A stretch of 64,000 nucleotides of DNA from a virus, in IMG/VR virus record IMGVR_UViG_3300023174_000079, positions 54,974 to 118,973 of that record. One strand, given 5' to 3'. The stretch's first letter is position 1, and the number at the start of each line of letters is the position of its first letter. Below are positions 7,937 to 58,558 of this stretch, one piece after another. The notes under the pieces were generated by a model that worked only from the letters and a program-made list of their open reading frames with translations, ran no database searches and was not told the origin of the DNA. The position numbers and the translations under genes were made by a program.

Positions 7937-9350
7937 AAAGTGCTTGTCGTTTTAATGCATGTGCAGCGCTATAGCGGAGATCATCAGTAATATCAAATAT
8001 TATAAGCTTAGTTTTATCTTTATGCAACCTAAGACCTCTACCAATCGATTGAACAATTTTTATCTTGGCCTTACCACCGCATGCAAAGATTATATAATGT
8101 AAATTTTTAATATTGATTCCGGTTGAGAAGATTTTTGATATAGCTACTACCACGACATTGCTATTAGTCTCCATGAGCTGTCTGACTCTATCACGCTCCT
8201 CTACTTCAACTTCTCCGCGAATAAAAAAGCATTGTTTCTCAGGCATCATACGCTGAACGATATCGAATAATAGTTCGCCGTGTTGGATATAATCAACCAT
8301 TATAAGAGAATTTTGATTCAGACCCTTAGTAAGCTTTGCAATGAGTTCGTTTCGAAAGGTGGAGGTCGTGAGGTATTCTAGTTCTTCTCTATATGCATTT
8401 CCGCCATCAGTTTTTTTTGGTACGTTCTTATGTAAAAGTTTAATAACCTGAATTGATGCATTACTTACATAGTTATCTTGTCTTAGATCGTAGCTATTTT
8501 TTTCATAGATAACCGGGCCAATCTTACCGATAATATTCCATTGATCTAAGCTCTCCTCAGGCATTGTACCTGTAAATCCAAACCTATAAGGTGTTTTAAT
8601 TTTCTTAAGAATATCGTTTACTTTATTACCTTTACGAATTTTATGTACTTCATCGACAATTAACAGGTCGATGTCCTCCAGCCAATCTAAATTACTATTT
8701 TTGCTTTGTAAGATACCAAGATTTGATACAATTACGTTAGATGATAGATCTAAATCATCGTCACCTGTCCATTTTGAAACTTTAAATGGTACACCGTAAT
8801 CAATAAAATCTTGATAGGTCTGCGATGCAAGACCACGATCTGGTACAATAAAGAGACATTTAAAGTCTTGTTTATTGTATGGTGACATATAGAGTCGATA
8901 GACTTTGGAAATTAGTGAAGCTGACGTTAGTGTTTTGCCACCTGCAGTAGCAAGAATAATAGTACCCCTTCCATTAAAAAGACATTCCTTTACGATATCT
9001 TCTTGATAGTCTCTAAGGCTTAATTTAAGTGGGTATATTTCATTTTTAAAATCTAACTGTTGATGCCAACCGTGTCTTGCTGGTACAACCTGATCAAAAA
9101 CATCTTTATTATATTCAATTTCACCTACGTATTGCTGACTGGTGAGAAACTTTTTAATCTCAACAAAAAGACATGGCTCAAATCTACCGGTTGGTGTTAT
9201 CGCGTAGGTTCGCGAAGGCATAAACCTACCTCGTCTACGCATAAAATGTGCTGCTTCATTTTTTACAGAGAAATGCTCACGTATTTCATCAAACATATCA
9301 CCTGATAATACACCGAGTCTTTTTTTCTTATCGTAATCAAATTTTATCAT
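7887..9350 (-). CDS. uvsW: UvsW SF2 helicase
   Basis: LRDYQ, ATAGGKT, DEVH, TGT, QSIGRGLR. Confidence 0.95.
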   Translation of the reverse strand: MIKFDYDKKKRLGVLSGDMFDEIREHFSVKNEAAHFMRRRGRFMPSRTYAITPTGRFEPCLFVEIKKFLTSQQYVGEIEYNKDVFDQVVPARHGWHQQLDFKNEIYPLKLSLRDYQEDIVKECLFNGRGTIILATAGGKTLTSASLISKVYRLYMSPYNKQDFKCLFIVPDRGLASQTYQDFIDYGVPFKVSKWTGDDDLDLSSNVIVSNLGILQSKNSNLDWLEDIDLLIVDEVHKIRKGNKVNDILKKIKTPYRFGFTGTMPEESLDQWNIIGKIGPVIYEKNSYDLRQDNYVSNASIQVIKLLHKNVPKKTDGGNAYREELEYLTTSTFRNELIAKLTKGLNQNSLIMVDYIQHGELLFDIVQRMMPEKQCFFIRGEVEVEERDRVRQLMETNSNVVVVAISKIFSTGINIKNLHYIIFACGGKAKIKIVQSIGRGLRLHKDKTKLIIFDITDDLRYSAAHALKRQALYEKEHIPFAIKEIEEK

Positions 9351-9736
9351 GTTGTCTCAAGCTGCATTATCTTGATAATATTTGATATATCATATGAACA
9401 GCTACTTAGCGTTTTTTCGGAACGTTCGAGAAGTTCAACAAGAAGATCAGTGTCTTGAATTTGCTTGTTAATATCTTGAATCCTGCTATGTTTATCGGCA
9501 GTAGCAGCAATAACAGGTTGTGTTAGTTTAACAGCGCTCGTATGATCGATTTCTGACATAATATCAGCTTTTACTTTATCTTTTTGCTTCTTAAGCTGAT
9601 TAATATGTGATTTCAATCGAATCATTCTTCCTGTCCATTTATGCTTTATAGCAGGAAGACGAAGCTGATAATCTTTAAGATTGAGTTCGTTAATCTTAAG
9701 ATCTTCTTCTAATTCTTTAATGTATTCTTCAAGCAT
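9347..9736 (-). CDS. uvsY: UvsY recombination mediator
   Basis: Helical protein EEDLKINELNL...LPAIKHKW...YDISNII upstream of uvsW; ATG at 9736 preferred over the ORF-track start. Confidence 0.75.
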   Translation of the reverse strand: MLEEYIKELEEDLKINELNLKDYQLRLPAIKHKWTGRMIRLKSHINQLKKQKDKVKADIMSEIDHTSAVKLTQPVIAATADKHSRIQDINKQIQDTDLLVELLERSEKTLSSCSYDISNIIKIMQLETT

Positions 9737-9771
9737 TAACCTTAAATATAATATAAGATACCTAAAAATCA

Positions 9772-10029
9772 ATGAGTAAATTTAACAGGCTTGTAGAAGA
9801 ACTTTTATCTGAAATGGCAGCGAATGTCGCTGGTGGTGCTGGTGCTGTTACAGGTCCGGTAACATCGGGTAATTACGGAAATCAGTTTCCCTCACAAAAT
9901 GATAGTGCATATGCACCTAATGATGCACGCGTACCTACTATACTAGGTGTTAAATCTTCAGGTAAAAAGAAAAAAAAGAAAGTTAAAGTACCTATTCAGC
10001 GTAGAAGTATATATTTACCGAGAATGTAA
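9772..10029 (+). CDS. Small putative virion-internal protein containing a copy of the gp23 N-arm and a poly-Lys tail
   Basis: MSKFNRLVEELLSE leader; YGNQFPSQNDSAYAPNDARVPTIL matches gp23 residues 79-102 at 21/24; KKKKKK tail. Confidence 0.85.
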   Translation: MSKFNRLVEELLSEMAANVAGGAGAVTGPVTSGNYGNQFPSQNDSAYAPNDARVPTILGVKSSGKKKKKKVKVPIQRRSIYLPRM

Positions 10030-10040
10030 TAACTATCTGT

Positions 10041-10466
10041 ATGGATAGCGGACATTGGCTTTTGAGTGAAGGTGTTATTATTGATGAGAATACTTTTGGG
10101 TTTATCTATTTGATTGTTAATACTATTAATAATAAAAAGTATATCGGTAAAAAGCAATGCACTAGTCGTATCAAGCGTAGACCATTAAAGGGTAAGAAAA
10201 ATAATCGGATTGATTATAAGGAATCTGATTGGAGATCCTATACAAGCTCGTCTAATGAGCTCAATGCAGATATAGAGAAGTATGGAAAGGATAAATTTAT
10301 ATTTAAAATTTTACGTACTTGTGATTCAAAGTGGGCTTTAGCGTACTATGAAATAAAAGAACAGTTAGGTGAAGATGTACTTTTGCGTGATGATTATTAT
10401 AATGGAATTTGTAACGTACGTATTGGTAAGGCTCCTAAGCTCGAGCTTGCAAAATTTAAACTATAA
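10041..10466 (+). CDS. GIY-YIG endonuclease
   Basis: FGFIYLIVNTINNKKYIGKK, YTSSS, YYNG. Confidence 0.85.
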   Translation: MDSGHWLLSEGVIIDENTFGFIYLIVNTINNKKYIGKKQCTSRIKRRPLKGKKNNRIDYKESDWRSYTSSSNELNADIEKYGKDKFIFKILRTCDSKWALAYYEIKEQLGEDVLLRDDYYNGICNVRIGKAPKLELAKFKL

Positions 10467-11073: not shown

Positions 11074-11523
11074 ATGAAATTTCTTGATAAACTTAATAAG
11101 CAATGGACTCTACTAGATGAGGATGATGCTACACAAGTTCCTGATAATACAGCGGATGCTGCAGCTCCTGATCCTAATGCAATTCCAAAGCCTGCTACAG
11201 GTGAGCTAGCGCAAGTAGCTCCTGAAGGCTATGTCGGTCTTGTAAAGCTGTTAGCAAAGGCAACAGCTATGAATTTTCCTGCTGGTGCGCTTGATGAAAT
11301 TTTTAGAACAGATATTACAGCTGAGAACGCTTTTCCTATGCAGACTGCTCTCGAAGCTGCTATTAAGCAGAATGAAATGTACAGCGACAATCCAGAAAGA
11401 TTACAAAATATAAATTATAATAAATTTGCTAATAGCATTAACGCTGGAAATTTTATAAACAAATATAAGCAGCTTCTTGCAGCTATGAAAAAGCAAGATC
11501 CATATTTAAAAGATGAGCTTTAA
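11074..11523 (+). CDS. Putative head-internal protein
   Basis: TAAATA-6-ATG; MKFLDKLNKQWTLLDE leader followed by an acidic/Pro/Ala linker. Confidence 0.6.
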   Translation: MKFLDKLNKQWTLLDEDDATQVPDNTADAAAPDPNAIPKPATGELAQVAPEGYVGLVKLLAKATAMNFPAGALDEIFRTDITAENAFPMQTALEAAIKQNEMYSDNPERLQNINYNKFANSINAGNFINKYKQLLAAMKKQDPYLKDEL

Positions 11524-48291: not shown

Positions 48292-48954
48292 ATGTCACTA
48301 CGATTATTAGTTGAAACACCGGCCTCAGAAGAGCAATTCGAGTATATTGAAGAGCAGAAAAATCTTAAAGGTCAATCTGTAATGAAGATTCGTGGCCCTT
48401 ATATGGCTTGCGAAGAGGTTAATAAGAACAAGAGAATCTATACAGAGTCGGATATGGAGCGTGAAGTTAATCGTTACGTCCAAGAAATGGTTATCCCTAA
48501 GCGTGCATTAGGTGAATTAAACCACCCTGCTTCAGCTGAAGTTGATCTCGAAAGAGCATGTCATATGGTTACCTCTTTACGTAAGGATGGTAATATTATC
48601 ATAGGTGAATCAATCGTTCTTTCAACCCCTGTTGGTCAAATTGTTCGTTCGCTTATTAATGATGGCGTTAAAGTCGGCATGTCAAGTCGTGCTCTTGGTC
48701 AGCTTGAAGAGCAATCTGATGGAATTAATCGTGTCAATGAAATGCGTCTTATTGCCGTTGACTGCGTAGCTGATCCAAGCTGTCCTAAAGCTTTCGTTAA
48801 CGGTATTCTTGAATCAAAGCAATTCGTTCTTGGCATGGATGGAAAACTTGAAGAAGTTTATGAATCTCTTGAAAAGAGTATTCGCGGCTTACCTCGCCAT
48901 GATGTCGCTTCATTCTTAAGAGAACAAATTCTTACCTTTCTCTCAAAACTTTAA
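48292..48954 (+). CDS. 21: gp21 prohead protease
   Basis: NKNKRIY, ALGELNHP, GMSSRALG, DCVADPS. Confidence 0.95.
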   Translation: MSLRLLVETPASEEQFEYIEEQKNLKGQSVMKIRGPYMACEEVNKNKRIYTESDMEREVNRYVQEMVIPKRALGELNHPASAEVDLERACHMVTSLRKDGNIIIGESIVLSTPVGQIVRSLINDGVKVGMSSRALGQLEEQSDGINRVNEMRLIAVDCVADPSCPKAFVNGILESKQFVLGMDGKLEEVYESLEKSIRGLPRHDVASFLREQILTFLSKL

Positions 48955-50365: not shown

Positions 50366-51871
50366 ATGTCAAAATCAATCCGTCCTTCACAGTCCTACAT
50401 CGATGAGAGAAGCGCTAAGACATTGCTTGAGAAGTGGAGTCCTGTATTGGATTACACATCCAACAACGTTGCTGCGATTGAAGACGATCATACCCGCTTG
50501 AACACCGCCATCCTCCTTGAGAACCAAGAGAAGTGGTGCTTTGAAGCCTCCAACAGTGATGCTGGTGGTGTCTTCGGTTCAAACGCTACATTCAACCAGT
50601 ATGGCAATCAGTTCCCTTCACAGAACGATAACGCCTATGCTCCGAATGATGCTCGTCTTCCTAAGATCCTCATCCCGATGATCAGGCGTACATTCCCTGA
50701 GCTCATCACTAACGAAATCGTTGGTGTTCAGCCCATGAGTGGTCCAGTCGGTCTTGCTTTTGCACTCCGTTATAAGTACGAACCTACTTCCCTCGGCTAT
50801 CAGAGTGGATCGCTTGATGCTTCAAGCACACAGCAGTACAGCACAGCTAGTAATGCTCTCCTCTCCGCTAACCCTGAATTAGGTTATCAGTACCTCAACA
50901 CAGCCTTCACCGGCGCCAGCTCTTCAGCTCTCTCCGGTGCTACAGGTTACTTCACAATGGTTCCTGAAGATCAGGGCGTTGCCGCACTCCTCGGCCAGTT
51001 CGAGTTGTCCAGCAACATTCCTCAGATCGTCGTTTCCTTCGAGAAGACAGCAGTTGAAGCCGGCACCCGCCGTCTTGCAGCTCGCTGGTCCGTTGAGCTC
51101 GAACAGGATCTTAAGAACATGAACGGTATCGATATCGATACTGAGCTCACCAACGCTATGTCGTATGAGCTTCAGGCCGAAATCGACCGTGAAATGATCA
51201 TTCGTATGATCCAGACAGCCCTCAATGCCGGTTACGGCGTTGGGTTCTCCGTCTGGAATCCTGCTTCAGCCGATGGTCGCTGGCTCGTTGAGCGTAATCG
51301 TGACTTCTATCAGAGACTCATCGTTGAGGCTAATCGTATTGCCGTCCGTAACCGCCGTGGTTCCGCCAACTTCATCGTTGGTACACCTCGCGTTTGCGCG
51401 ATCCTTGAAATGCTCCCTGAATTCCAGTGGGTACCCGTTCAAGGCTCTGTCAATACTCAGCCCGTCGGTGTTGCAAAGGTAGGTTCCTTAGCTGGTCGCT
51501 TCAATGTTTACCGTGATACACGTACAGAGGCTCAGTTCGAGGCTAACGCCGGGGGTAACTTCGGTGGTAAGGGTGGTTTCCCAACTAACGTTGGTGGAAC
51601 TAGCGCCCAGACTCGTACTACCCGTCTCGACTACGCACTTCTCGGTTACAAGGGACCTGAATTCTACGACACCGGTATCATCTACTGCCCATACATCCCT
51701 GTTATGGTTCAGCGTACTATCGGTCCTAACGACTTCAGTCCCCGTGTTGGCTTGCTCACCCGTTACGGTGTCGTTGATAATATCTTTGGTGCAAACCTTT
51801 ATTATCACGTTATCGTTCTCCAGGGTCTCAGCACAGCCTTCACACCGGCTACGCAGTCTGTCTACTTCTAA
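50366..51871 (+). CDS. 23: gp23 major capsid protein
   Basis: LLEKWSPVL, LLENQ, GVQPMSGPVGLAFALR, R.LAARWSVELEQDL, EIDRE, YCPYIP, P.VGLLTRYG. Confidence 0.98.
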   Translation: MSKSIRPSQSYIDERSAKTLLEKWSPVLDYTSNNVAAIEDDHTRLNTAILLENQEKWCFEASNSDAGGVFGSNATFNQYGNQFPSQNDNAYAPNDARLPKILIPMIRRTFPELITNEIVGVQPMSGPVGLAFALRYKYEPTSLGYQSGSLDASSTQQYSTASNALLSANPELGYQYLNTAFTGASSSALSGATGYFTMVPEDQGVAALLGQFELSSNIPQIVVSFEKTAVEAGTRRLAARWSVELEQDLKNMNGIDIDTELTNAMSYELQAEIDREMIIRMIQTALNAGYGVGFSVWNPASADGRWLVERNRDFYQRLIVEANRIAVRNRRGSANFIVGTPRVCAILEMLPEFQWVPVQGSVNTQPVGVAKVGSLAGRFNVYRDTRTEAQFEANAGGNFGGKGGFPTNVGGTSAQTRTTRLDYALLGYKGPEFYDTGIIYCPYIPVMVQRTIGPNDFSPRVGLLTRYGVVDNIFGANLYYHVIVLQGLSTAFTPATQSVYF

Positions 51872-51936: not shown

Positions 51937-51981
51937 ATATTGTTGTAAAAAAAGCGTCACATGCTGAATAAATAATAGTAT

Positions 51982-52488
51982 ATGGCATACGAAACCGTCC
52001 TCAATACACCAGTTCTTATCAGTACTGTACCTTCATCAACTGTAAACGCAACTGGTTATGCTTCCACACTTAAGCTTAACATAAGTGCAACAACACTCGG
52101 CAATGCACTAACAGATGAAGTTTGTACACTTAGTATTGTTACTAGTGCAAATAGTGATTATGCTTCACTTAGTTCTGCCGGTGGCACAACAATTAATTTA
52201 TCTCTTAGCTCGCCAACAGTTTTAGCAACTCCTCAAGTATGGCCTGGTCAAATAGCTACATCTACATATAGCAATACAACAAAATCTGCTACACTGACAA
52301 TTACCTTCCCACAGCGCTCCCTCCTCACAACATCAATTAGCTTATCAGCTAATGCTAATACAACAATTGTTGATCCTACAAAGACATCTGTTGTTGATAA
52401 CTTCTTCTTCTTAACCGGTAGCCCTGATGTAAACCATCAAGTCCGTACAACCGGTGGTCAGGCTAACCTACAGGCATACCTCGGCTAA
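51982..52488 (+). CDS. Putative virion (capsid decoration-like) protein
   Basis: TAAATA-7-ATG; Thr/Ser-rich beta protein directly after gp23 with its own terminator. Confidence 0.55.
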   Translation: MAYETVLNTPVLISTVPSSTVNATGYASTLKLNISATTLGNALTDEVCTLSIVTSANSDYASLSSAGGTTINLSLSSPTVLATPQVWPGQIATSTYSNTTKSATLTITFPQRSLLTTSISLSANANTTIVDPTKTSVVDNFFFLTGSPDVNHQVRTTGGQANLQAYLG

Positions 52489-55744: not shown

Positions 55745-55780
55745 ATCCAGATTATAGGTGTAAATAATGGTATATCAAGT

Positions 55781-58558
55781 ATGGATTATCCAAAATATTA
55801 CGGCAATTATATGGGCATCGTCGTACAAAACAATGATCCTCAATACAGAGGTCGTGTCAAGGTATTCGTGCCGCATATCACGCCAACAGTCTATAAGAAC
55901 TGGATAGAAAATAGCGATCAACAACCTGCTGTTGATCGTGTGTTTAAATTTATTGGCTCAAACATAGGAAGTGATCTTACAAATATTATTGACGACTTAA
56001 AATTAATTCTTCCTTGGGCTGAAATTGCCTCTCCTATTACCGGAGAATCAAGCGCTGGTCGGTACCATGCAGCGTCAAAGAAAGCAACTACAAGTGACGG
56101 TAGTAACTATAATTACCTCTTCGGATCAAACCCGACGCCATATTCTCAAAATTCTGACAATATAGCTGAAAAACCAGGTCATATCTATGATATGGCGACT
56201 GTCAATCTAAGTGATGCATTTAATAACCCTCAACTTACAAACGTTAATAATGTCAATAAGCTAAGCTATAACTATACTCCAGAGTGTTATAGTAATAGTG
56301 GTAAAGGTTCCTTTGCTGTTCCAAATGTAGGATCACACGTATGGGTATTCTTTAATGCTGGTGACCCATTAAAGCCGGTTGTTTTTAGCGTTTCGTACGG
56401 TGCTTCAGAATGGAATTCCATTTATGACGCTGTAGCAGGTCAACCCGGGTTAGACTATCCCGGTGAATGGGAGAATGCATCAACAGGATCCGGTACTATT
56501 AACGCCGAAACCTATCGCAACAAGTATGTTATCAATCAAAAAGGTGGTACATTAGCTTTTGTAAATACAGATAATAGAGAGATTTTAAAGCTAACTCATT
56601 ATTCAGGATCATTCAAAGAGTTTAATAATCAGGCTAATATTGAACTCGCAACCAATAATGACCAGAAACTAGTCCTCGGCGACTTGTTTCAAACAGTTAG
56701 AGGTACGAGAAACGAATTTACCCAACGTGATTATGATAACGTTATCGCAGGAGATCACTATCGTAAGGTCGGTGATTTAAATGTCGCGCTCTATCAGCAG
56801 TGGAAATCAATTATGAATCCAATTGCTGATATCAGGCAATTATTCGATATTCGTAGAACAAATGGTGTTGTAGATAACAGCGTAGCTAATTTATTAAAAC
56901 TTAATGGTACCGGTCAAACAAAAAATGGAAACCCAGCATTATGCCCTGTTTGCGCTGATGCTAATAATACAGTACTAGCTCTCAATAATTCGTTTGCACC
57001 TGGTTATAGAGCCATGACAAACACTGTATATACAGGTAATACTATTGGTGATGGTGTTGGTAAACAAACTCTGACTGGCTTGGACTCGATAATTCGTGAT
57101 GTTACTCCAAGTAGTTTTCTCGCTGGTTTAAATGTAGGATCTCTTCTTAATTTAATTAAATCGACTGTCGGTCCTTTTAATCCACAAGCTAGTGTTATTA
57201 CTGCTTTCACAGGTGGTAATACATCTACAGCTATTGTAGGTACCGATCGATCTACATTGCCTCATAGACCAGGTTTTCCTGCCGGGCATAAATGCCCAGC
57301 TTGCGGTGGTACGGGATTAAGTCCGAGTTCATTTAATGGTGTCTGGGCAGTAGAGACAAAGAAGACTGTCGATCTGCCAAACATGATGCTTGCTGCAGTA
57401 CCACAGCTAGCAAAGCTTGAAGCTCTTATGGGCCAAGGTGGTTCAGAGATTTTAGAAATTACAAAACATAAAGTCGAAACTATTGGCACGGTAATGAATG
57501 ATTGGGGGGCTATTCGTATTGACCCTTTAGGTAAGATGGAACCAGCTTATGTTCAAGTACATCCTGGTGCTTCATTAACGATTAACAAACCGTCACCGCT
57601 TATTGAGCAAGTTATGGTCGATGATCTCCCGGGCGGTACATATACTCTCAATGTCTGTAATCGCTATAATGTTCTTGTTGGAGCAGGTGGAGTTAATCTC
57701 AAGTCTTATGGTGTAGTTAATATCTCCGGTGCTATGACAAATATTGCCGGCGAACAGGTTAACATAGGTAGTGCAAATGAAGTCAATATTGACGGTGGTA
57801 AACGCTTGTCGCTCGTTGGAGATATCGTTCATATTAAACAGCGTAATAACGAACAAGTGCTACTTGATGGTGATGTCGGTATTTCAGGTAATCTATACAT
57901 TAAAGGTGGAGTGTATGTTGAACAGAATCTTGCAGCTCAATCCACCGATACCCCTCAGCGTAAGCGTCAAACCGACTCTACTATTGTTAAGGGTAGCCCA
58001 GTATCAGATATGTGTACTGGTGTTGCTATTCCGATGGATACAGCGGGTCAAGTTCTTGATCCTACAACAAGAGAATTAAAACCAGGAGGTGGTACACCAG
58101 TGTATATGGGATACACGGATACAACAAGACCTGTCGGTGGGATTCCCGTAGGCACAGTTATCGGTCAGGTTATTGTAGGTGGGGTTACGTATAGTGTAAC
58201 TGCAATTGCAGCAAACGTAACAGGTGTCGCAAGTGGTGGCTTGATGATTAATGGTACAGGCTCAACAAATTTAAGCTTAAGAGGCTTACCGCCTTCCGAG
58301 GTGCAAAAATTGATTAATGCATCAAAGATACCGACTTCTGGTGGAGCTAATCAATTCCCAATTATGAATCTCGGTACAGGTGCTCATGCTGACTCACACG
58401 TTATGGCGCCTCATACTCATAGTCATGATGAAGGTGAAGTGGGCTCTCACATGGCTATACGTCAAATAGCTATGTCGGGTTTAGTTGCTTACGATAATAC
58501 AGACTTCGGCGACACTAAGACAGCTAAGCCATATGATAAGGTATCTTATCTTGCTTAA
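55781..58558 (+). CDS. 5: gp5-like baseplate hub/spike protein
   Basis: Y.G.VVQNNDP...GRVKV..P OB fold, PNVGSHVWVFF..GD, HYSGSFKEF, beta-helix repeats, C-terminal HTHSH. Confidence 0.8.
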   Translation: MDYPKYYGNYMGIVVQNNDPQYRGRVKVFVPHITPTVYKNWIENSDQQPAVDRVFKFIGSNIGSDLTNIIDDLKLILPWAEIASPITGESSAGRYHAASKKATTSDGSNYNYLFGSNPTPYSQNSDNIAEKPGHIYDMATVNLSDAFNNPQLTNVNNVNKLSYNYTPECYSNSGKGSFAVPNVGSHVWVFFNAGDPLKPVVFSVSYGASEWNSIYDAVAGQPGLDYPGEWENASTGSGTINAETYRNKYVINQKGGTLAFVNTDNREILKLTHYSGSFKEFNNQANIELATNNDQKLVLGDLFQTVRGTRNEFTQRDYDNVIAGDHYRKVGDLNVALYQQWKSIMNPIADIRQLFDIRRTNGVVDNSVANLLKLNGTGQTKNGNPALCPVCADANNTVLALNNSFAPGYRAMTNTVYTGNTIGDGVGKQTLTGLDSIIRDVTPSSFLAGLNVGSLLNLIKSTVGPFNPQASVITAFTGGNTSTAIVGTDRSTLPHRPGFPAGHKCPACGGTGLSPSSFNGVWAVETKKTVDLPNMMLAAVPQLAKLEALMGQGGSEILEITKHKVETIGTVMNDWGAIRIDPLGKMEPAYVQVHPGASLTINKPSPLIEQVMVDDLPGGTYTLNVCNRYNVLVGAGGVNLKSYGVVNISGAMTNIAGEQVNIGSANEVNIDGGKRLSLVGDIVHIKQRNNEQVLLDGDVGISGNLYIKGGVYVEQNLAAQSTDTPQRKRQTDSTIVKGSPVSDMCTGVAIPMDTAGQVLDPTTRELKPGGGTPVYMGYTDTTRPVGGIPVGTVIGQVIVGGVTYSVTAIAANVTGVASGGLMINGTGSTNLSLRGLPPSEVQKLINASKIPTSGGANQFPIMNLGTGAHADSHVMAPHTHSHDEGEVGSHMAIRQIAMSGLVAYDNTDFGDTKTAKPYDKVSYLA

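Follow-up and report, generated by a model that had tools for sequence, protein, structure and literature searches.

ORF85, an 85-residue protein encoded by the 64,000-nucleotide stretch of viral DNA analyzed here (i.e., the window), is one form of a widespread, uncharacterised class of proteins that carry a copy of the N-terminal arm of the major capsid protein, and this class includes the product of T4 gene 61.1. Judged by its sequence, ORF85 is classed among the known head proteins with targeting leaders, of which it appears to be a new form. The explanation that we favour, and for which we put the chances at about even, is that ORF85 is a head-targeted, protease-processed peptide that would use the contacts of the capsid arm. 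In T4, contact with the scaffold, control of head length and stabilisation of the shell are all driven by the N-terminal segment of the capsid protein. A conserved, separate copy of this arm, combined with the leader and Glu logic of the internal proteins, would be a component or regulator of head assembly that has so far gone unrecognised. Since T4 gp61.1 and its counterparts in hundreds of cultured phages have the same layout, this can be tested directly in the best-studied phage.

ORF85 Copies the Mobile N-terminal Segment of the Capsid Protein

The gene for ORF85, its parts and the capsid gene of the window are as follows.

9772..10029, + strand: ORF85, 85-aa small protein (translation; stop codon included)
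9772..9813, + strand: ORF85 leader, residues 1-14 (MSKFNRLVEELLSE), ending in L-S-E; capsid-targeting-like, predicted helix
9814..9945, + strand: ORF85 residues 15-58, counterpart of the capsid N-terminal segment, beginning just after the Glu and running to ...PxIL (BLASTP, joint alignment and hhalign)
9946..9987, + strand: ORF85 residues 59-72 (GVKSSGKKKKKKVK), Lys-rich insertion relative to the capsid protein (14-residue hhalign gap)
9988..10026, + strand: ORF85 residues 73-85 (VPIQRRSIYLPRM), copy of capsid IPMIRRTFPEL (joint alignment and hhalign)
50366..51871, + strand: major capsid protein, Gp23 family, 501 aa (Pfam PF07068, E=2e-86)
50540..50704, + strand: capsid residues 59-113, the segment copied in ORF85 (hhalign; L113 corresponds to T4 L106 by phmmer)

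The open reading frame reported in the initial annotation of this DNA (9772-10029, + strand) translates to the same 85 residues. That annotation had also claimed that ORF85 residues 35-58 match capsid residues 79-102 at 21 of 24 positions and that 13 of the 21 identical residues use different codons, and we obtained the same counts. The DNA under this match is identical at 53 of 72 nt, and its longest exact run is 8 nt. The similarity is longer than these 24 residues. BLASTP aligned a wider stretch of the two proteins (26/37 identical, E=3e-14), and hhalign aligned ORF85 residues 12-85 with capsid residues 59-113 over 58 columns (probability 99.4%, E=3e-21). A joint alignment of the small and capsid proteins agrees with the profile-profile limits: the match starts at the Glu before xxNVAGG and ends with IPMIRRTFPEL in the capsid protein and with VPIQRRSIYLPRM in ORF85. 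Overall, the consensus sequences of the small-protein and capsid families have 39 of 59 columns in common.

The Lys-rich stretch of ORF85 is located between PxIL and (I/V)P. Because VPIQRRSIYLPRM aligns with capsid IPMIRRTFPEL, this stretch is a 14-residue insertion and not a tail. Hence, of the earlier description of a 24-residue match fused to a terminal poly-Lys tail, the match stands in extended form, but the terminal tail does not, as the hhalign alignment places the Lys stretch internally. The length of the insertion varies from about 6 to more than 25 residues across the ORF85 family.

In a phmmer search of solved structures, the capsid protein of the window matched T4 gp23 at E=9e-31, with its residues 61-113 aligned with T4 gp23 residues 66-106 and its L113 placed on T4 L106. 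The first 65 residues of T4 gp23 are reported to be removed (PMC7136217). T4 L106 is described as the first ordered residue of the unexpanded head, and upstream of it the gp23 segment is inside the unexpanded head, probably on the scaffold core (PMC9546572). After expansion, the gp23 segment is external and consists of an extended arm and a 25-residue N-fist, which touches four subunits and forms the Soc sites, as described for the expanded head (PMC9546572, PMC9958956). Because the limits of the match are those of the T4 N-fist and N-arm segment, ORF85 copies exactly the mobile N-terminal segment. The copied segment is, by alignment, the same as that of mature T4 gp23, which is mobile and moves from an internal to an external position upon expansion. 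The two differ in that the T4 gp23 segment is covalently part of a shell subunit, while ORF85 is a separate protein with a Lys-rich insertion. ORF85 matched 0 Pfam families and did not match the HK97-fold body model of PF07068; the Pfam match in the window capsid protein covers residues 99-388, and most of it lies downstream of the shared residues 59-113. An AF2 model of ORF85 contained a helix at residues 3-19 and coil elsewhere, including the capsid copy (mean pLDDT 65). The modelled coil is as expected for an arm that would become ordered only on a partner.

The Leader and the Presumed Processing Site

The N-terminus of ORF85 is MSKFNRLVEE-LLSE, with F4, L7, V8 and E10, and the alignment of its homologues revealed that M1, F4, L12 and E14 are at least 90% conserved. 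In T4, the first 10 residues of IPIII are reported to suffice for head targeting, residues 4 and 7 of the capsid-targeting sequence to direct targeting and residues 8 and 10 to direct processing, and gp21 to cut after L/I-x-E (PMC9026906). The ORF85 leader is of the IPII/IPIII type, with an aromatic residue at position 4, hydrophobic residues at positions 7-8 and Glu at position 10. Thus, the earlier proposal of a capsid-targeting-like leader fits the T4 pattern, given the conserved F4 and the hydrophobic-x-E site ending in Glu. The L-S-E14 motif with its conserved Glu is a predicted site of the gp21 type, and the head module of the window contains a gene for the presumed processing enzyme:

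48292..48954, + strand: prohead protease (Peptidase_S77, gp21 type; Pfam PF03420, E=2.6e-33; phrog_207, head maturation protease)

Cleavage after this Glu is predicted to yield a mature peptide of 71 aa that is basic, with a pI of about 10.6.

It had also been suggested that the shared motif follows a Glu in both proteins. This was borne out, as the homology starts at the Glu that precedes the capsid N-terminal segment, and Glu10 of T4 gp61.1 (discussed below) is aligned with Glu65 of gp23. The Glu|x-x-N-V-A-G-G spacing is alike in the small and capsid proteins, with one extra residue in ORF85. The Glu before the shared segment is found in C-F-E in the window capsid protein and in L-R-E or I-Q-E in its relatives. 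Because the window sequence is C-F-E and not L/I-x-E, the cleavage site of the window capsid protein is placed by position only, and phmmer places T4 Glu65 elsewhere than at this C-F-E.

Among the T4 head proteins, IPII and IPIII are similar to ORF85 in their 10-residue leaders, which begin MKTYQEFIAE and have an aromatic residue at 4, hydrophobic residues at 7-8 and Glu at 10. They are described as basic products cut by gp21 (PMC9026906), and the product of ORF85 is likewise basic. Unlike ORF85, they are folded proteins without gp23 similarity or a capsid-arm copy after the leader. Another internal protein, IPI, is reported to be an inhibitor of a host restriction enzyme (PMC3012670). The 80-aa gp67 of T4 is, like ORF85, small, and is described as a prohead core protein processed by gp21 (PMC9026906). 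In a comparison by eye, however, it was rejected as a relative because it is strongly acidic and has no visible similarity to ORF85 or the gp23 arm.

Conservation and Genomic Context of the Small Gene

A word-indexed search identified 45 close homologues of ORF85 with lengths of 71-96 aa, in whose alignment the leader, the core and the C-terminal motif are all conserved; Q76, R77 and R78 of ORF85 are at least 90% conserved. From scans of IMG/VR, 39 distinct small proteins and 28 distinct capsid N-regions were extracted. When a family profile built from 43 members was searched against 1.84 billion cluster representatives, 304 clusters (50% identity) were found at E<=1e-3 and 43 at E<=1e-10, and most of the 304 clusters are of 60-100 aa. 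Pairwise dN/dS, based on 22 unsaturated pairs, is about 0.26 overall, with values of 0.30 for the leader, 0.22 for the copy and 0.31 for the tail. The homologues and the selection at the protein level that the initial annotation had anticipated are therefore both found, and the small gene is conserved and more than an oddity of a single window. On this comparative evidence, ORF85 is to be regarded as a real, functional small gene under purifying selection. A search of a protein atlas returned unnamed viral clusters only, and blastn and tblastn searches of GenBank phages with the window region, ORF85 and two family members (P0207 and P0191) returned no match.

The surroundings of the small gene in the window are as follows.

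9347..9736, - strand: uvsY-like gene, divergent neighbour (weak Pfam UvsY match, E=0.0019, below the curated cut-off)
9742..9757, + strand: conserved TTAAATATAATATAAG box, located between the starts of uvsY (9736) and ORF85; putative late promoter
10041..10466, + strand: GIY-YIG (SegE-like) gene, 141 aa (Pfam PF19835, E=3.6e-29)

This arrangement recurs. A divergent uvsY-like gene is found within 300 nt in 82 of the 84 distinct loci with enough upstream DNA, and in 67 of 80 loci the small gene is followed, no more than 200 nt away, by a GIY-YIG gene of the same orientation; in the window, this distance is 11 nt. The GIY-YIG neighbour behaves as a core gene and not as a sporadic homing endonuclease. 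We also considered whether the small gene could be the footprint of a homing endonuclease; this was rejected because the GIY-YIG gene is fixed beside the small gene (67/80 loci). The N-terminus of the 141-aa GIY-YIG product (MD.GHW.L.EG) is highly conserved among 66 distinct N-termini, and the product is not as long as T4 SegE (annotated CDS, 618 nt).

The small gene is also preceded by a conserved box. A box that contains TAAATA precedes the small-gene start by 7-35 nt in the 37 loci listed. The consensus of T4 late promoters is TATAAATA. Since the TAAATA box resembles the T4 late promoter, it suggests late expression of the small gene. Elsewhere in the window, a 14-mer (TAAATAATAGTATA/TAAATAATGGTATA) that is a candidate late-promoter box occurs at 51969-51982 and 55761-55774 (+ strand), where it directly precedes the open reading frames at 51982, just after the capsid gene, and at 55781. 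In related loci, the same 14-mer also precedes the small gene. With one mismatch allowed, it has 8 matches, compared to 3.5 expected.

Relationship to the Capsid Proteins of the Same Genomes

The earlier proposal that the copy co-varies with each genome's own capsid protein was examined with 14 small/capsid gene pairs from the same record and 6 further pairs, which were matched solely because their contigs are equally long; the two genes are separated by 35-40 kb. Across these 20 pairs in the joint alignment, same-genome identity is 0.511, compared to 0.472+-0.010 for a shuffled null (p=0.0005). It is between clades that this excess arises; for the clade of the window, no excess of same-genome similarity was found (p=0.53, 16 pairs). 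The proposed co-variation consequently holds between clades but not within the window's clade. The small proteins of the window's clade are more similar to the capsid proteins of their own clade (0.526) than to the small proteins of other clades (0.359). The small protein of a 100%-complete relative (G023) is 72% identical to its own capsid segment, while its best other matches are 53% to a capsid protein and 56% to a small protein. A small paralogue that tracks the sequence of its parent gene across deep clades represents an unusual mode of evolution.

A maximum-likelihood tree of the segment (40 rows and 44 columns, with long branches) intermixes small and capsid sequences. A single clade of small proteins, defined before the tree was seen, was rejected by the AU test (p=0.0022). 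In the tree, the small protein of G023 groups with its own capsid protein. The small protein of G007 (L047) groups with the capsid protein of G011 (L132) with support of 98/95. These two proteins share a short variant, AGPG..LG.WTD.G, and are identical at 22 of 33 residues, while their DNA is only 58% identical, and in each of the two records the record's own partner carries the common variant. The DNA of similar small and capsid segments is 58-74% identical. The small proteins P0031, P0040 and that of G007 diverge in the copy, while the motif in their capsid proteins is invariant. The GGGRVNVQDD variant occurs only in small genes (2/2 hits); a scan for capsid genes with this variant hit only the two small-gene contigs. 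The G007/G011 resemblance, the diverging small proteins and the GGGRVNVQDD variant all speak against a model in which each copy simply matches its own capsid protein.

T4 gp61.1, Matisse gp29 and Other Proteins with Capsid-arm Copies

The link to cultured phages came only through the use of T4's own gp23 arm as a query. A search with T4 gp23 residues 61-110 gave 1705 places, distributed over 1495 records. In Klebsiella phage Matisse, the additional place is CPT_Matisse29 (gp29), a protein of 162 aa annotated as "major capsid protein; T4 gp23-like". Its C-terminal 47 residues read ...MLE/DMVAGDSGG...NIGPKVLGVTRAGKRKKK, and it matches residues 61-100 of the Matisse gp23 at 22 of 40 positions (E=3e-12). 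Relatives of Matisse gp29 are found in 1281 records, T4 gene 61.1 among them, and 583 phage records cover at least 80% of gp29 (tblastn).

T4 gp61.1 is a protein of 54 aa with the sequence MKTFKEFIKE-DMVAGDSGGNPENISIGTTSGAVVNKGPEQIPKKKKEESKEKEE, in which the leader is followed by DMVAGDSGG...KKKK. Its residues 2-38 match gp23 residues 57-93 at 17 of 37 positions (E=1e-9), with Glu10 on the cleavage-site Glu65. The pattern M-K-T-[FY]-[KQ]-E-F-I was found at exactly three places in the whole T4 genome, which are ipII, ipIII and 61.1:

T4 NC_000866, 19130, 65718 and 66415, minus strand: M-K-T-[FY]-[KQ]-E-F-I sites (pattern scan)

The alignment of gp23 residues 57-65 (QAFGSFLTE) with the gp61.1 leader (KTFKEFIKE) hints that this kind of leader resembles the end of the capsid propeptide. 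The T4 internal proteins could thus have acquired their targeting leader from that end, which would be a possible origin of the capsid-targeting sequence. The T4 and Matisse paralogues also share lineage-specific residues with their capsid proteins (17 and 19 of 38 within the same genome, compared to 15 and 15 across genomes).

A layout that consists of a Glu-ended leader, a copy of the N-terminal segment of the phage's own gp23 and a basic run is found in T4, Matisse and the window. Like ORF85, gp61.1 (phrog_1823) contains a Glu-ended leader of the targeting type, a gp23 N-fist copy that starts xMVAG(D/G) and a Lys run, and the leader of P0207, a member of the ORF85 family (MKTFKEFIQED), is identical to that of gp61.1 at 10 of 11 positions. 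In contrast to ORF85, the copy in gp61.1 stops near gp23 Pro93 and is followed by an acidic tail without a QRR/FPEL-like end. Matisse gp29 (phrog_2086) is similar to ORF85 in its copy of the N-fist and arm of its own capsid protein and in its basic end, but an additional domain of about 115 residues precedes this part, so that its "leader" is internal. The positions of the genes also differ: T4 61.1 and Matisse gp29 are encoded beside the primase gene (gene 61 in T4), while ORF85 is encoded between uvsY and the GIY-YIG gene. The primase region around T4 61.1 is an early-gene region, which counts against the reading that we favour.

At the profile level, ORF85 matched 0 PHROG families at E<=0.001, including phrog_1823 and phrog_2086, both of which are PHROGs of unknown function. 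P0207 matched phrog_1823 at E=0.0051 only, over residues 1-15. When a gp61.1 profile made of two sequences was compared with the ORF85 family by hhalign, the probability was 66-72% and E about 3-5e-5, and this link is mostly confined to the leader junction. It should be noted that gp61.1 and ORF85 are alike in layout, while membership of one sequence family is not established. A weak profile link would be expected if the middle part follows the capsid protein of each lineage.

In the literature, gp61.1 is listed as a conserved hypothetical protein (PMC3468402) and is also mentioned in PMC12895675. Our search for papers on gp61.1, gp23-like second copies, the N-fist and targeting sequences found no study of these proteins. 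The initial annotation had stated that no protein of this kind had been described; this is right insofar as no paper was found, but the layout itself is known in the form of T4 61.1/phrog_1823 and Matisse gp29.

The module of leader, arm copy and Lys run is also found fused to other domains (P0218, P0226, P0274, P0182-P0187 and P0228), with a GNAT acetyltransferase in front in P0218, DUF5661 behind in P0228 and unnamed domains in the others. The GNAT and DUF5661 fusions would fit a carrier or anchor role of the module.

Possible Roles of the Processed Peptide

If ORF85 is a head-targeted and processed peptide, its helical leader of the T4 capsid-targeting type would take the protein into the prohead core, where the gp21-type protease would cleave behind the Glu that corresponds in position to the one in the capsid protein. 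The partners of the resulting basic peptide would be those of the capsid arm, i.e., first the scaffold core and later arm or fist sites of the shell, with its Lys tract facing the DNA. We infer the packaging, cleavage and binding partner of the ORF85 product, as well as any contact with DNA, from the features described above. A complex prediction with two copies of capsid residues 115-501 and ORF85 residues 15-85, with alignments for each, gave no answer in two runs (score 0.00), which does not weigh on the question of binding in either direction.

The initial annotation had proposed that the peptide occupies a vacant arm site, which is possible. In T4, the fists facing the portal are described as disordered (PMC7136217). 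No second Gp23-family gene of the gp24 type was found in the window's own record or in any of five clade records (5/5; 60-88% complete), and the only such sequence in a 100%-complete relative is a 116-aa fragment; as the other records searched are incomplete, these results do not amount to proof of absence. A further-reaching version, which we hold to be rather unlikely, is that T4-like phages, including T4 itself through 61.1, make a trans-acting spare arm that acts as a staple between genome and shell. The leader would then load the peptide, the prohead protease would trim it to the same N-terminus as that of the capsid protein, and the trimmed peptide would insert into donor-less fist or arm sites beside the vertices or the portal, where the Lys tract would hold DNA. 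Such a staple would be expected to co-evolve with the capsid protein.

Alternatively, ORF85 could be an assembly regulator, in which case the peptide would compete with the capsid N-terminal segment for its partner, be it the scaffold core, adjacent subunits or the protease. In this way it would adjust nucleation, the size of the head, the timing of cleavage or expansion, before being degraded or leaving. The copy is exactly the segment tied to scaffold contact and to the control of capsid length in the account of PMC9546572, and it carries the same Glu site. However, the conserved Lys tract and QRR motif are not explained by competition alone, and cargo fusions such as those with GNAT and DUF5661 suit a carrier or anchor better. 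We consider regulation by competition a doubtful explanation.

Capsid-sensing defences such as Lit/Gol and CapRel exist. ORF85 could accordingly be read as a counter-defence decoy, a free copy of the capsid N-terminus or of the protease site that would titrate a host sensor of the capsid or the prohead protease. A decoy must follow the capsid sequence of its own clade, as the copy does, and activation of CBASS by phage proteases is reported in a 2026 preprint (PMC12991175). A cytoplasmic decoy, however, needs neither a head-targeting leader nor a DNA-like Lys tract, and the near-universal family with its fixed position (82/84 loci) is unlike typical anti-defence genes, which are variable. A decoy role is, in our opinion, improbable.

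The intermixed tree raises the question of whether the small gene serves as a gene-conversion donor or acceptor for the 5' part of the capsid gene and diversifies the N-fist, with the protein being of secondary importance. The groupings of the G007 small protein with the G011 capsid protein (98/95) and of the G023 small protein with its own capsid protein are what such exchange would leave. Exchange of this kind is nevertheless very improbable, given that the DNA of similar segments is only 58-74% identical, that exact runs in the window do not exceed 8 nt, and that the leader and tail have no counterpart in the capsid protein and yet are under purifying selection (dN/dS 0.30 and 0.31). Finally, the reading of ORF85 as an inert remnant of a partial capsid-gene duplication beside a mobile GIY-YIG endonuclease, to which the SegE-like gene 11 nt downstream might point, is refuted for practical purposes by the conservation data, i.e., the 304 clusters, the dN/dS of 0.26, the conserved start, leader and upstream box and the fixed position of the GIY-YIG gene itself (67/80 loci).

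Additional Small Proteins of Related Type

Two genes downstream of ORF85, at 11074-11523 of the window (+ strand), a 149-aa protein is encoded whose N-terminus is again a conserved leader of this type (MKFLDKLNKQWSLLDE; 34 distinct N-termini) and continues into a stretch rich in Ala, Pro and Asp. With this leader, it may be another head-targeted protein. In G023 (L235, 66247-66420, minus strand), a second small open reading frame starting MIRRGFPALITSDIVNVQPMSGPVGLAFALR encodes, again as a separate protein, a copy of the capsid segment that comes next (Pfam Gp23 positions 6-61, E=2e-12). The segment copied in this L235 open reading frame is presumably the region homologous to the T4 Gol peptide.
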